Origin: Eledone cirrhosa
Taxonomy: Eukaryota
Length of the DNA stretch: 64,000 nt
Direction of reading: 5' to 3'
Assembly (NCBI GenBank): GCA_964016885.1
Contig: OZ024740.1
Coordinates: forward strand, 257,982,001 to 258,046,000
Shown: in pieces, positions 2,127 through 50,760 of the stretch
Numbering within the stretch: the first letter of the stretch is position 1
How the letters are laid out: each line of letters begins with the position of its first letter
Program-made: the position numbers and the translations under genes
Notes under the pieces: model-generated
The model's database searches: none
Told to the model about the DNA's origin: nothing
Seen by the model: only the letters and a program-made list of their open reading frames with translations

Positions 2127-2265
2127 ATAGGAACAAGTAAGACCCCGACGGCTGAGCTCAAGCCGTTTCGACGGCTAATTCTGTACTAATTTAGTACAGA
2201 ATTTAGTACAGAATTAGCCGTCGAAACGGCTTGAGCTCAGCCGTCGGGGTCTTACTTGTTCCTAT
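2127..2265. repeat. Fold-back inverted repeat of a 3'-half hammerhead (PLE pLTR)
   Basis: Arms about 2127-2189 and 2202-2265 are reverse complements; each carries GAAACGGCT TGAGCTC AGCCGTC (helix III + GUC). Confidence 0.85.
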
Positions 2266-2309
2266 ATATATATATATATATATATATATATATATATATA
2301 TATAATACA

Positions 2310-3390
2310 ATATAAATATTCCATCACCCAAGGTCTCCTGAAACTATACGATGTTAACAGAAACGTCAAGTACGCTCATCAGATGAAATATTTATGTTAT
2401 GGATAAAAGATTTGAAATTAAAATCTATGAAAAATGAAAGTAAGGCTGAGTTAAAATAACGGAAAAATACATATACACGCAGAATCAGATATATATATAT
2501 ATGCACATATAATAAATAAAAAAAGTAAAAATATGCATACATACACACATACACACACATACATATATACATATATACACTACACATACACACATAAACA
2601 CGCACACATATATACATACAAAAACACATACATAACATAATTATACATATTCATATACACACACATGCATATATACATACACATAAATAATAACATAGGA
2701 GAATATCTATATATGAAAGTTGAAAGATATAATTAATGAATAATAAAAAAAATAAAAATAGTAAATAAAAACGAGAGAGTGGTTGTCCAGGAAAAACCTG
2801 TGCACATATACAAATATAAAAATATACACATATACACATACATACACACACATATCGATACGCACGTGCATATATAAGTCAGTGTCAATAAATTCATTTT
2901 TTATATCTCATATATATATATATACATTTTTTAATGTTATTATTTATGTGTATGTATGTATATATGTGTGAGTGTATTATATATATGGATGCGCCTTTCT
3001 ATAAGTATGTGTATATATGGATGTTTTGTATATGTGTATGTATAATTATGTTATGTATGTATTTGTATATATATATATACATATATATATATATATGTGT
3101 GTATATATATATGTGTGTGTGTATGTGTATATATGTATACGTGTGTGTATGTCCGTATGTATGTATATATATATTATTTTAATGCTACGTATATGTGCTT
3201 ATATGTATATGTGATTCTGTGTGTATATGTATTTTTTTCCGTTATTTTAACTCAGCCTCACTTTAGTTTTTAACAGATTTTAATTTCAAATCTTATATCC
3301 ATAACATAAATGTTTCATCTGATGAGCGTACTGGACGTTTCTGCTAACATTGCAGAAGAACCTGGGTGATGGAATATTTATATTGTGTTG
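2310..3390. mobile_element. Inverted pair of PLE pLTR-like copies with degenerate HHRs (2316-2391 minus, 3310-3377 plus)
   Basis: About 2310-2490 and 3215-3390 are diverged reverse complements; TTTCAT-CTGATGA...ATGGAATAT helix I kept, GAAA/GUA decayed; related to 11362-11510. Confidence 0.6.
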
Positions 3391-4252
3391 CTTATTATAT
3401 AATTAAATAGCTCTGTACTACACATAGAGCACTCTTCTTTCCTTTAACTTTTCTACAGAAATACTTAACACACATGCACAAACACACACACACACACTCA
3501 CACACATACGCACACACAAACACATACACACATACATATATATATATACATATATATATATAAAAAAATAGAGGTAACAACCAACCAAATTGTAATACCT
3601 CCCAGGCCACTTTTTTCACATAAAACGGGAAGAATTTCGAAAACTGATCAGATTAGAGCAAAAAATCACGGGCGCTCTATCTCAAAATTATTTTTGAAAA
3701 GCATAAGAAATGCGCAACCGGTAAAAACTTAAAACTAAAACTGAATACTAACTAATACTTATTACAAATTTATACCTATTCCTAATTAAACTATTTTTCA
3801 CTGGGAAAAATGTGTCAGCATTTTCTTTTCCTTTTTACTAATACGTATATATATATATATATATATATATATATATATATATATATATATATATATATAT
3901 ATATATATATATACATACATATATATATACACATCTATATAGAGATAAATCTACCAAAATATACGGTAGTATCCAATCCGTATGAAGAACTCAATGTAAT
4001 CCAAATATCATGAAAAGAGAAGATGCATTCAAAAATTTTCGTTGAAAATCACAGGAAAACAGAGTCAAGATAAATTAATAAAAACAATGAATAAAAACAA
4101 AGAACAAGTTCCTTATATTAAAAAATTCATCATTTTACGATCGTTTCGAGGATATATATGTGTGTTGGTATGAATATCATATGTAAAAATATTACAAACT
4201 ATCAGAGGAAATATTCATACCTTCACATATATATGCTGTCTTCAGAAATAAT

Positions 4253-4434
4253 TGTTTCTACGTTTGGCACAAGGCCAGAAATTACCCAGAGCATTACTGA
4301 TACTTTATTTTATCGACCCCGTAAGGATGAAAGGCAAATTAACCTCGGCGGGATTTGAACTCAGAATGGCAAGGGCCGTAACTCTATACGTCAAAGCATA
4401 GCGTCCGACCCTCTACCGATACTGCCAATCCACC
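4253..4434 (-). mobile_element. tRNA-derived SINE with 16-bp TSD
   Basis: Sense GGTGGATTGGCAGTATCGG (A box), GAGTTCAAATCC (B box), core GCCTTTCATCCTTACGGGGTCGATAAAATAAAGTA; TSD TGTCTTCAGAAATAAT at 4237-4252 and 4437-4452. Confidence 0.9.
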
Positions 4435-5379
4435 GTTGTCTTCAGAAATAATGAGATTTGTTTATTGAAAAAACCCAACAAAGATTTAATATAATAGGTC
4501 TGTTTGGGAACAGGTTTTGAATTGACCAATAGAAAAGTAGTAACTGGTCAAGTTCATAGAATAGTAGTAGTAGAAATTTCATTTAGGGGTAGAGGAATGC
4601 AGACTTATGTTTTGAATGGAAAGAATACTTTGAATGAAAAGATTACTTTGGGGATGAAAAGAGGTCAAGCCGGTGAAAGGTACACGAAAATTTGATGTTA
4701 CTAAAGAATAATGTTAAAAAGGAAGGAGAGTAAAATTTTAGGGTGAAGGTATTAGTGAGAATACCAATCTTATTTAAAACACAAGGAATTTAGATCTATA
4801 ACAAGAAATTAAATTAATTGATAGGTATACTTATAGGGATACATTTATATTAATTCATATGGATGTGATAAATAAGAATTAGATGTTATTAAAGAATGTT
4901 GTTAAAAACGAAGGAAAATAAAATTTTGGGATAATCTGTTATTTTAATCTATATATGTATATATATAAAACTGAGGAAGGATGCATGTATGTATTATGTA
5001 TTATGTATGTGTGTATGTTTGTATGTGTGTGTGTGTGTGTGTGTGTGAAACACGAGAAGTACCCAACCGATAATTTTCAAACTTTATATGTGTATTACTT
5101 ATATTTCATACTTTTAAATCTTATATAGACTACAAGGAATCTAGATTCATAACAGGAAATTAAATTAATTTATATGTATTCTTTTATGTATTAATTTTAG
5201 GAAAAGAGAGCTGTAAGAGGGGAATACAATTATGAAGTTCTCTATAGTAAAGTACTAATTATAGGTTAACTAAATTAAAAAAACTAATTATAATAATATG
5301 TAAAATATAAGTGTAAGTTGTATATTAATTAGGTTTATAATATTTGAAAGTTCTTCTAATTCTATGATTGCAAGATATA

Positions 5380-48494: not shown

Positions 48495-48590
48495 AATAGC
48501 TCGGTTTTTACATAGAGCACTCCTTTTTTCCTTTGATTTTTCTTCGGAAATACTGGACATACATATATATATATATATATATATATATAT

Positions 48591-48686
48591 ATATAGATGA
48601 GATTCTACAGGACTAGAACTGTTTCATTCTTTAGAAACATTTCTAAAAAATGAAACAGTTCTAGTCCTGTAGAATCTCATCTATAT
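48591..48686. repeat. Fold-back of 3'-half hammerhead pLTR
   Basis: Apex TTAGAAA CA TTTCTAA, then GAAA-CAG...CTG-TA|GAATC; related to the 8268 HHR. Confidence 0.85.
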
Positions 48687-48800
48687 TAAAACTTTTATAC
48701 TCTGCAATGTATTGAGTACCTTATTCACTGTGGTTACCTCCGATTCAACCCGGAATAACGTATATATATATATATATATATATATATATATATATGTGTG

Positions 48801-50008
48801 TGTAAATATGATAATTATGGAGCTGCGGCGCTGCAAATGGGTTACATATGAAAAAGTTTGTCCTCATCAGTGGCCTTCCAACCGTCGTAGGCATTTCGTC
48901 GCATTAAAGGCCATATACCTCAGGTTGGTGCGAGCAACGGCTAAAAAAAGTCGTTGGGACACGTAAATAAGGGGGACGCTAGGGTAAACAAACAAAATGG
49001 TTTAAGCAACAGAAAGTGATGAAGAAGAAAGAAACAAGTCCCAGATTTCTATGAATATAAATTCGGTGGAATCGTGAACGAGAGAATAAAGACCATCAAA
49101 CCTGGTTGAAATGTGAGCAAGGAAGGAATTTCGCACAGGTCTAACGGGAGGAAGAAGGGGTCTGGTCTGCGAATTCGGTAAACATAAGTTCTGTGAAGTC
49201 GCAGACGAGAGAGAGAGAAAAAAAATTCATACCGGCTTGGCCAAGTACCCGCGAGAAAAGGATTACGGACAGGTCAAACGGGAAGAAAGGGGAGGAGGAG
49301 AGGTAGTGACAGAGAGTGAGTGAGTGAAAGGTGAGGAAGAGGCTAACAGAGAGAGAGAGACTGCTAGAAAGGGTAAAGACACAAAGAACGAAACAGACTG
49401 GTGGCAGCGGAGGAAAAAATATATGTGTAAATATGATAATAATGGAGCTGCGGCGCTGCAAATGGGTTACATATGAAAAAGTTTGTCCTCATCAGTGGCC
49501 TTCCAACCGTCGTAGGCATTTCGTCGCATTAAAGGCCATATACCTCAGGTTGGTGCGAGCAACGGCTAAAAAAAGTCGTTGGGACACGTAAATAAGGGGG
49601 ACGCTAGGGTAAACAAACAAAATGGTTTAAGCAACAGAAAGTGATGAAGAAGAAAGAAACAAGTCCCAGATTTCTATGAATATAAATTCGGTGGAATCGT
49701 GAACGAGAGAATAAAGACCATCAAACCTGGTTGAAATGTGAGCAAGGAAGGAATTTCGCACAGGTCTAACGGGAGGAAGAAAGGATCTGGTCTGCGAATT
49801 CGGTAGAAATCTGGGACTTGTTTCTTTCTTCTTCATCACTTTCTGTTGCTTAAACCATTTTGTTTGTTTACCCTAGCGTCCCCCTTATTTACGTGTCCCA
49901 ACGACTTTTTTTAGCCGTTGCTCGCACCAACCTGAGGTATATGGCCTTTAATGCGACGAAATGCCTACGACGGTTGGAAGGCCACTGATGAGGACAAACT
50001 TTTTCATA
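48801..50008. repeat. 625-bp-period partial tandem plus inverted third copy, between (TA)n tracts (PLE-like architecture)
   Basis: 48801-49180 = 49426-49805; 49805-50008 is the reverse complement of about 49470-49676. Confidence 0.9.
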
Positions 50009-50084
50009 TATATATATATATATTTATTTCGTTTCTGAATTTGTTTAGCAAGATTCTTTATCTGAAAACGTGTGTTGAAACCGA

Positions 50085-50760
50085 TATTGTTATAGTTTGG
50101 GAGGGTCATGTGCCAATAAGAAACACACGCACCAGATGCTTTCACTTCCATTTATTATAATAAATTTATAAATTTAGGAATTTATACATTTCCGGTTGGT
50201 TGGTTGGTTCCACAACCAGATGATTGTTTATATATTGTCAACGTTCTTTCGTCACACACACAAAAGAGGCAATGTTTAGACAAATCACAGAGGCAATAAA
50301 CATAAATGAACTCCAACCAAAATTAAATAGAAAACATGAATGGAACAGCAGCATCACAACTTACAATTAAGGACAAAATGAAAACACACACATAGAACAA
50401 ACAACCAACCAGTAACATGTAAATAAACAAATAAATAAACAAATATAATCACACACAGACACCCGGATGTAACACATACACAAACTAAGCACACAACACA
50501 CACAAAAACAAGATGGCGTAGGACAGAACAAAGGAGAGGCACAAAAACAAAGAAAAGAATCCCCAGTCACTGAAGAGGTCACATAATGTGTGACGAAAGA
50601 ACTTTGGCAATATATGAACAATCATCTGGTTGTGGAACCAACCAACCAACCGGAAATTCATAAATTCCTAAATTTATAAATTTATTATAATAAATTCCAT
50701 TTAATGCATCTGGTGCGTGTCTTTCTTACTGGCAACATGACCCTCCCAAAGTATAACAAT
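50085..50760 (+). mobile_element. Poseidon-like PLE 3' fragment with inverted 5' pLTR
   Basis: 50085-50258 is the inverse of 50588-50760; the middle encodes ELQPKLNRKHEWNS. Confidence 0.85.
50566..50608 (+). ncRNA. Hammerhead with one extra core nucleotide
   Basis: GTCA-CTGAAGA-G-GTCACA taatg TGTGAC-GAAA-GAAC-TT|TGGC. Confidence 0.7.

Follow-up and report, generated by a model that had tools for sequence, protein, structure and literature searches.

Sharp 5' edges and head-to-head terminal repeats of Penelope-like elements in Eledone cirrhosa: likely RNA starts and likely joining of two cDNAs

Results

The 5' ends of the pLTRs of Penelope-like elements (PLEs) in Eledone cirrhosa cluster at a single sharp edge per family, where they reach 5.0% per base in a counting interval that was picked post hoc. 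On the evidence of the sequences, the edge is probably the capped start of an uncleaved element RNA, and the palindromes in which two pLTRs stand head-to-head probably consist of two cDNAs linked through their 3' ends, not of a single folded-back cDNA. We started from a 64,000-nucleotide stretch (assembly GCA_964016885.1, contig OZ024740.1, positions 257,982,001 to 258,046,000; hereafter the window), for which a first-pass annotation had claimed that fold-backs and truncations repeatedly break inside helix II of the hammerhead ribozyme. That such junctions are real, clustered, common to several families and bear on the origin of inverted pLTRs was borne out; the place and the proposed cause of the breakage were not.

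Families were labelled F1 to F8 for this analysis, and positions are counted from the G of GAAA (position 0). The junction samples are the first matches along one contig and represent exact-match, that is young, copies; within a junction the two arms do not count as independent observations, and some loci, few in number, are apparently duplicated. Thirty loci from a DNA search spanning the F1 ribozyme were excluded from the F1 counts, because such a search favours copies that cover the query. For F3 and F6 exact patterns gave 2 and 4 matches; these families were sampled by similarity instead and scored by eye only, with F3 ends lying mostly about 150 nt upstream and the majority of F6 ends upstream of the core. 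The F5 and F8 anchors span the cut site, so that anchor samples are blind to ends there, and the F5 cut site was tested separately.

The features of the window that bear on the junctions are as follows.

2050..2187, minus strand: F2 long-tailed arm of a head-to-head pair; 5' end at -18, the family edge
2205..2265, plus strand: F2 short arm; 5' end at -18; GAAA-helix III-GUC present, CUGANGA absent in F2
4136..4250, minus strand: F7 intact hammerhead; helix II of ~97 nt; CTGAAGA 4245-4239, GAAA 4147-4144
4248..4435, minus strand: probable tRNA-like SINE, judged from box-like motifs; inserted just 5' of the F7 core, with the duplicated target on its other side
7755..7834, minus strand: F8 short copy truncated at about -7, in helix II; minority class
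9608..9680, plus strand: F8 untruncated hammerhead region; core CAGAAGA 9613-9619, GAAA 9633-9636
26185..26900: F3 old head-to-head pair; arms 88% alike; junction ~26520-26526, inside helix II
32949..33491, plus strand: F1 copy with an internal deletion joined at ~33228
35884..36357: F6 head-to-head pair; junction ~36087-36088 (-20), in the long helix II of F6
48345..48501: F4 old head-to-head pair; arms 82% alike; junction in the helix II loop
48591..48745: F5 head-to-head pair; left arm short, right arm long; junction -13/-12
50084..50258, minus strand: F1 inverted arm; 5' end at -8
50254..50758, plus strand: F1 direct arm; ORF end, 3' UTR and hammerhead (CTGAAGA 50570, GAAA 50595)

Nine sites had been placed 2-25 nt upstream of GAAA, and eight of them are real junctions, at -7 to -25. 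The ninth, a supposed 5' truncation at 4152, is none, as the F7 element continues there through its long helix II to the intact CTGAAGA. At ~2195 the head-to-head junction is real, with a short duplicated piece between the arms, but the loss of CUGANGA ascribed to it did not occur: in F2 copies that are not truncated, CUGANGA is absent from the roughly 480 nt upstream (5/5 long copies), and therefore the junction lost nothing. Position 36071 is neither a junction nor the start of a tandem copy; F6 sequence continues to about 36088, where an inverted junction lies, 16 nt from the place first given, and the right arm of this pair is split by a SINE (36099-36287) with target duplication. The truncation at ~7835, the fold-backs at ~26525 and at ~48420 in the long F4 helix II, and the internal deletion at ~33228, which has a 6-nt direct repeat at its join, were all confirmed. 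So were the F5 junction at ~48638, on the border of core and helix II, and the F1 arm end at 50258, where the arms overlap by 5 nt. Five window junctions (26525, 36087, 48420, 50258 and 7835) lie inside helix II. The F8 edge at 9608 is the first base of the helix I 5' strand, and the F1 family end cluster falls at ~50491-50513 of the direct arm.

We determined the edge from the sampled arms of each family. In F2, 39 of 99 arms end at -22..-16 and 2 ends fall in the next 100 nt upstream; in F5, 34 of 88 arms end at -26..-23. The F8 edge (15/103 arms at -26..-22) is weaker. The F1 cluster (15/55 arms at -104..-81) lies 60-80 nt upstream of the ribozyme, and the F4 edge comprises 25/75 arms at -60..-52, with a peak at -56 that is sharpened by references starting there. 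By eye, 12 of 29 F7 arms end around helix I and the core. The strongest clustering is that of F2, yet this family has neither helix II nor core.

Helix II itself showed no peak. Pooled over F1, F4, F5 and F8, four families with a real helix II (F3 and F6 standing outside the test), 24 ends fell in 5374 arm-bases at risk in helix II versus 24 in 5880 between GAAA and the anchor, that is 0.45% against 0.41% per base (Fisher p=0.77). For F4 alone, 12 of 75 arms end in helix II (0.52% per base, versus 0.33% downstream). Breakpoints are far from uniform, but their peak is outside helix II, and at this true hotspot the copies of F4, F5, F7 and F8 retain the core at the CUGANGA position that they had been said to lose. 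In three families the edge lies 17-25 nt before GAAA, and therefore gives the impression of helix II breakage. Stalling of reverse transcriptase with self-priming at helix II accounts for a minority of cases, the clear one being a clean fold through the long helix II of F4 (L169/L170), and is not the main route; deletions cross helix II at L153, L156 and L386. A split ribozyme left no sign, F2 being without core and helix I partner and F8 carrying CAGAAGA in 73/76 copies.

The view that the ends do not arise by self-cleavage is supported for F5, whose cut site is no hotspot: a foreign base precedes the cleavage product in 167 genome matches, against 398 for an internal control and 2350 for the edge, and 10 of 19 inspected cut-site matches are point changes in intact copies. 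Among 28 F8 partner arms, the only arms scored here, none ends at +21. A counter-case is F2, in which 7/99 arms end at +22/+23, at the foot of a GC-rich hairpin, though the family has no catalytic core.

The base preceding the edge is frequently an extra G, the mark left when an RNA cap is copied. Counted by hand in the first 100 matches of each listing, the bases were G76 T13 A11 at the F5 edge (2350 matches) versus G33 T53 A14 at the control (398 matches; p=1e-9), and G58 C23 A19 at the F8 edge (2919 matches) versus G25 A54 C21 at a helix II control (901 matches; p=4e-6). A second F8 control at -28, 3 nt upstream of the edge, does not discriminate (G54/100, 665 matches, p=0.67); read post hoc, it may mark a second start, since 23 palindrome centres among the first 50 carry G+GTTAG. 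The F4 edge has G73:A27, a ratio open to the partner-arm and flank confound and given without a control, and F2 shows no G excess at its edge (5/25). Among 20 consecutive F5 matches with G, the G comes from neither partner arm nor flank in 7 events (8 rows), continues the partner arm in 10 and the flank in 2. A TATA-like box precedes the edge, which reads pyrimidine-A, by 30 and 33 nt in two subfamilies of F5 and by 29 nt in F2, and possibly stands at such a spacing in F4; F8 has no TATA box before its edge. Taken as sequence features, these observations make the edge a likely capped start of uncleaved element RNA.

Head-to-head pairs were scored after dropping 6 of 105 rows (F5 L131, L248 and L262 for a spurious partner, F8 L178, L282 and L315 for an unclear one) and counting 10 F8 arms first scored long as short. 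A long-tailed arm is paired with a short arm in 96/99 junctions, with tails of 65-90 nt in these families. By hand tally, 23 of the 96 pairs are non-nested: their short arm extends beyond the 5' end of the long arm by >10 nt, and 11 of these 23 share no sequence. As neither arm contains the other, such pairs are not from simple fold-back copying. Nested junctions form the largest class (35) and fit fold-back equally. Which arm is longer has no fixed polarity. A helix II loop variant is common to both arms in 19/19 F5 pairs. Arms of opposite orientation, neither containing the other and with shared variants, fit an L1-type twin-primed inversion, in which two cDNAs stem from one template. A genome-wide count gave 95 F8 palindromes in which each arm extends all the way to the edge and the centre reads C-(0-6 nt)-G; among the first 50, 37 have 0 or 1 base between the arms. 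The C-A-G centre that dominates need not mean two caps, as a short snap-back extension could produce it too. The flanks are (TA)n, where target-site duplications are unreadable. Both 3' ends lie inside the transcript unit: at the F8 locus L311, a pLTR-ORF-pLTR partial tandem in which the ORF lies between two repeats and its ATG follows the long end by about 55 nt, the upstream repeat passes both ends into the ORF.

The F1 and F8 ORFs, with weak support by profile, place the elements in the EN+ Penelope-like class, which has a single ORF with reverse transcriptase followed by a C-terminal GIY-YIG endonuclease. The F1 ORF matched RVT_1 (E=5e-5, below the Pfam cut-off) and then, weakly, GIY_YIG_2 (E=0.11); the F8 ORF had no Pfam match, and its Atlas neighbours at 0.95-0.96 carry RVT_1, HTH_animal and GIY-YIG. 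A Pfam search of three window frames gave no match, and F2, F4, F5 and F7 had no ORF tied to them by test. The partial tandem of L311 and the inverted pLTR with a tail on one arm, found in the 96/99 junctions above, are further EN+ Penelope-like traits. By inspection, the parts of a type I hammerhead (CUGANGA, GAAA, NUH, helices I-III) are present in F1, F3, F4, F5, F6 and F7; F8 has all helices with its altered CAGAAGA, and F2 retains GAAA-helix III-GUC. Rfam returned no hammerhead among the matches listed (150 of 165), and minimum-energy folds were mostly without the full three-way form.

Discussion

Two explanations keep fold-back copying at the centre of the palindromes. One accepts the edge as an RNA start but lets the 3' end of a single cDNA prime itself, the non-nested arms arising by later asymmetric deletion of an unstable centre. 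We regard it as unlikely, though it is the strongest of the alternatives. Variants always common to both arms, nested junctions as the largest class, overlaps of 2-14 nt with a foldable loop at L187, L106 and L226, and pairing through helix I at L122, L464, L467 and L476 agree with it, and self-priming has already been proposed for Penelope (PMC3846280). It sits badly with the short arms of L484 and L490, which start with an extra G and are joined straight to a tail-only long arm, with centres of 0-1 nt although both arms are complete, with the 11 pairs that share no sequence and with the missing polarity of the longer arm. The other explanation is that of the first-pass annotation: either helix II halts reverse transcriptase and its hairpin lets the cDNA prime itself, or a split ribozyme defines the template. 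The five window junctions in helix II, the L169/L170 fold and the three helix II deletions speak for it; it is nevertheless very improbable, given the lack of excess in helix II, the core retained by hotspot copies, the F2 clustering and the distant F1 cluster, and as the main route it is refuted for F1, F4, F5 and F8.

The edge might instead be an RNA processing site, where RNA is spliced (3' splice site) or its 3' end is cleaved downstream of a hexamer like a poly(A) signal; we think this quite improbable. In F2 and F7 the edge follows AATAAA by about 10 nt, in F5 it follows TATAAA by 24 nt, and the F2 edge resembles an acceptor; modal F2 and F5 ends come after CA. In D. virilis an intron ends at helix I (PMC4209133). 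However, an extra G before the retained A in F5, F8 and F4 is unexpected from cleavage or splicing, F8 and F4 are without such hexamers, and no upstream exon is joined to the edge among the printed junctions. That the palindromes are fold-back artefacts of sequencing or assembly is scarcely credible. The 2195 apex itself is unbridged among the contig matches listed, but the arms of a pair are unlike in their 3' end and flank, divergence has accumulated in old pairs (82-88% alike), a SINE interrupts one arm, and many such joints, landing at 2201-2215, occur in contigs from two public runs that belong to one study; these runs may be the source of the assembly.

Our preferred reading, a capped start and two joined cDNAs, can be extended to a route of insertion. 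Transcription by RNA polymerase II would begin within the upstream pLTR; for F5, F7 and F8 the start would be the base that opens hammerhead helix I. The element endonuclease would cut both strands in (TA)n; one DNA end would prime at a distal internal site, giving the long arm, and the other at a proximal site, giving the short arm, on the same RNA or on RNAs of one locus. Each cDNA would reach the RNA 5' end, where the cap would be copied as C, or stop early, the distal-primed one often halting inside the tail. Joining of the two 3' ends would then rely on microhomology of 0-6 nt or on the insertion of a few bases. Some trimming would go with it, and for that reason ends may spread 3'-wards into the core and helix II. 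With priming on the 5' repeat, solo and palindromic pLTRs would result, whereas one end primed on the 3' repeat would yield the classic ORF copy with an inverted pLTR. Joining of two separately primed cDNAs thus likely explains the inverted ends of these elements. The process may go further and be a programmed twin priming. A protein dimer would then use two fixed internal sites of a single uncleaved, capped RNA, which begins with helix I, to prime both broken ends, and the run-off cDNAs, once joined, would form the inverted pLTR; we judge the odds of this to be even.

The closest experimental parallel is Anolis Poseidon (PAc) in vitro (PMC11167929), where two internal reverse transcriptase start sites bound the tail and both strands are cut and extended, as proposed here. 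A dimer was predicted there, the main template was uncleaved RNA, and hammerhead cleavage was unnecessary, as is suggested here. That study is silent on cDNA end positions and on the joining of inverted copies; the one-long-one-short rule and the cap signature are genomic additions. EN+ PLEs of A. vaga likewise have head-to-head pLTRs, a one-arm tail, palindromic junctions and microsatellite targets (PMC3846280, PMC8557442), and self-priming on an antisense template was inferred for them (PMC3846280). In contrast, the G-marked edge and the many non-nested pairs here point to two sense-templated cDNAs, and tails are 65-90 nt against 30-40 nt. In LINE-1 twin priming, too, the second DNA end primes internally and the cDNAs are joined by microhomology, and an extra G at full-length 5' junctions is the copied cap (PMC11702581). 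In L1 the internal site is variable and inversion occasional, whereas here the second site is fixed and the two cDNAs often span one and the same part of the RNA, so that many of the insertions are palindromic.

Transcription of D. virilis Penelope starts inside the upstream pLTR, as proposed here, and needs a partial tandem; its promoter is internal and TATA-less (PMC2377424), whereas F5 and F2 have an upstream TATA-like box that edge-starting copies lose. Type I minimal hammerheads, many of them solo or found 100-700 bp apart on opposite strands, are described from PLE pLTRs in PMC4209133, much as inspection suggests for our elements; they are reported there as low in activity, with cleavage and circles proposed as templates. 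Unlike in that account, copies here begin upstream of the ribozyme and not at the cut, and the core is altered in F8 and absent from F2, both of them abundant families. The literature covered, with few subscription papers, holds no link of PLE 5' ends to a cap G and names no twin priming for PLEs, and earlier statements are possible.

How PLEs make their direct and inverted terminal repeats is a standing question, for which PMC2377424 found no obvious mechanism, and the junctions described here bear on it. Families with thousands of young copies each provide base-level junction rules that tie the 2024 in vitro result to genomic structure. The data suggest that the template is uncleaved RNA, and the 6019 and 36015 exact anchor matches suggest continued spread of elements whose ribozyme core is altered or absent. 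If the programmed twin priming is true, the start site and the priming sites would set pLTR length, the ribozyme would be dispensable for copying, and cap-G junctions would map PLE promoters from genome sequence alone.

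Position of 5' ends in the hammerhead repeats

The first-pass annotation had claimed that fold-backs and 5' truncations of the terminal repeats break within hammerhead helix II and not at the cleavage site. Helix II is unsupported as a rule, and the claim leads to a real, sharper pattern, in which 5' ends pile up at one edge per family. For each site, the genome (3.0 Gb) was searched with an exact word taken from the ribozyme's 3' side, and matches were counted whole. Because this word lies on the 3' side and matches were listed in genome order, the listed copies were unselected for 5' extent. 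Sequences were taken from part of the first 100 matches per family, overlapping loci were removed, chance neighbours were added, and the arms (single repeat copies) were aligned to natural long copies. Families F3, F6 and F7 were sampled by similarity and judged by eye.

Genome matches, aligned arms and edges (G of GAAA = 0, minus = 5' side)
Family; exact-word matches; arms aligned; arms ending at edge; edge
F1; 4008; 55; 15; -104..-81
F2; 6019; 99; 39; -22..-16
F4; 1504; 75; 25; -60..-52
F5; 16999; 88; 34; -26..-23
F8; 36015; 103; 15; -26..-22

Across F1, F4, F5 and F8, helix II held 24 ends in 5374 arm-bases at risk and the stretch from GAAA to the anchor 24 in 5880 (p=0.77), so helix II is no breakpoint hotspot; the edges of the same families, pooled over windows picked after the data were seen and without F2, held 89 in 1776. 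The 100 nt immediately upstream of the edge contained 2 ends in F2 and 5 in F5, and end density falls off 3'-wards. In F2, F5 and F8 a distance of 17-25 nt separates the edge from GAAA, and the tail of the edge therefore overlies the core and helix II. That breaks do not lie at the cleavage site was supported in F5, where 167 matches had a foreign preceding base at that site as compared to 2350 at the edge; half of the cut-site matches inspected were point changes. Seven F2 arms ended at +22/+23, which, as this family is without a core, we ascribe to a GC-rich hairpin and GGGG overlap.

Eight of the nine junctions named in the window were real, at -7 to -25. The truncation at 4152 was a misreading of the long helix II of F7 (~97 nt, window 4136-4250), an AT-rich stem resembling flank; this hammerhead escapes short-spacer descriptors. 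The junction placed at 36071 exists, is inverted and lies near 36087, while the supposed loss of the core word CUGANGA at 2195 falls away, as F2 never has it. Old pairs were diverged, with arms differing in ends and flanks, and the same class of joints occurred in contigs of two public runs; no bridging of the 2195 apex itself was seen among the contigs listed. A SINE lies directly 5' of the F7 core, at the same spot in 5/29 F7 arms (window 4248-4435; L402, L411, L422, L426), either as a recurrent target or as a single inherited insertion.

Setting and family identity

The window carries many short repeats embedded in (TA)n; reverse transcriptase and GIY-YIG-like frames also occur, as fragments. 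The repeat could be linked to an ORF in F1 (RVT_1, E=5e-5; GIY_YIG_2 weak) and in F8 (repeat-ORF-repeat order in locus L311; Atlas neighbours carrying RVT_1, HTH_animal and GIY-YIG). All families are treated as Penelope-like terminal repeats (pLTRs), an ORF being linked to these two. Other features were:
18299-18784 and 22140-22601, frames resembling DNA-transposon transposase fragments, which we take to be pogo- and Tc1-like
48799-50012, another element in near-identical copies (382 nt direct, 209 nt inverted), ending at a CTGATGA word
50855-51439, segment inverted and repeated, with two tRNA matches (50985-51055, minus; 51270-51340, plus)
53019-55208, long degenerate tandem array of short period

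The edge as a putative start site

By hand count of the matches listed, the base preceding the F5 edge was G in 76/100, as compared to 33/100 at an internal site of the same context; in F8 the counts were 58 and 25 at the control. The families themselves carry C or T at this place. A control 3 nt upstream of the F8 edge was as G-rich as the edge itself and looked like a second edge, noticed afterwards. No G excess was found before the F2 edge. In half of 20 F5 cases inspected, the G also continued the partner arm; pairing of a cap-derived C at this position would give that result, though this is not proof. In L1 insertions, an extra G is described as a mark of RNA cap copying (PMC11702581).

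F2 and F5 have TATA-like boxes at a distance of 29-33 nt upstream of the edge, F4 has a weaker one and F8 has none. The broad F1 cluster lies immediately 5' of a word that is presumably a YY1 motif; the same YY1-like word also occurs upstream of the ribozyme in F1-related families (window 35352 and 36907). In F5, F8 and F7, pairing read from the sequences makes the edge coincide with the base that opens the 5' strand of helix I. We infer that the edge is probably a polymerase II start site. At G000:C1:420967300-420967575, six tandem 51-nt units each begin with G plus the F4 edge, possibly because copying returned to the RNA start several times.

A variant hammerhead core, CAGAAGA, is fixed in 73/76 copies of F8 (window 9613-9619 and F8 loci); this family is the most numerous, and its helices I, II and III are intact. 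F2 keeps GAAA-helix III-GUC, has an initiator-like word in place of the core and lacks the helix I partner (window 2205-2265; L085, L090); the family is young and its ribozyme vestigial. Its upstream sequence also occurs in a sequencing run of another organism. In F3 (L369-L396), the core is directly preceded by a stretch of ~55 nt that resembles an intron, with a donor-like start, a pyrimidine tract and an AG; a similar arrangement has been described in D. virilis Penelope.

Formation of head-to-head pairs

Each family examined has two 3' ends (F2, +43/+120; F5, +35-44/+110; F8, +45/about +135), both inside the transcript unit as seen in L311. After six rows were dropped, 96/99 head-to-head junctions paired a long arm (with tail) with a short one (without); of the others, one (at a locus with three arms) joined two long arms and two had an intermediate end. 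A loop variant was common to both arms in 19/19 F5 pairs, and both arms therefore derive from a single RNA or a single locus.

A minority of junctions were genuine fold-backs, running through helix II or helix I. In 23/96 pairs the arms were non-nested, the short arm reaching >10 nt further 5' and the tail being on the long arm, and 11 of these 23 had no sequence in common; this argues against fold-back, since a fold-back copy must lie within its template. Later deletion could also produce non-nested arms, but in L484 and L490 a G-bearing short arm is joined straight to a tail piece. In 95 F8 palindromes both arms were complete, with C..G between them and mostly one base apart, centres too tight for a priming hairpin; snap-back before joining may supply some bases. 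The pattern matches what was seen in vitro for Anolis Poseidon (PMC11167929), where synthesis started at two internal sites, both strands were extended and the template was uncleaved, and it resembles L1 twin priming, except that the second site is fixed here.

Inverted pLTRs, the one-sided tail, promoters and hammerheads in pLTRs, and proposed self-priming are published (PMC3846280, PMC8557442, PMC2377424, PMC4209133 and bioRxiv 10.64898/2026.07.22.740005). In the openly accessible main texts searched, we did not find it stated that 5' ends of Penelope-like elements carry a cap G, that helix I is where their RNA begins, or that inverted pLTRs consist of twin-primed, non-nested cDNAs. The sharper edge pattern makes the origin of inverted pLTRs open to testing.
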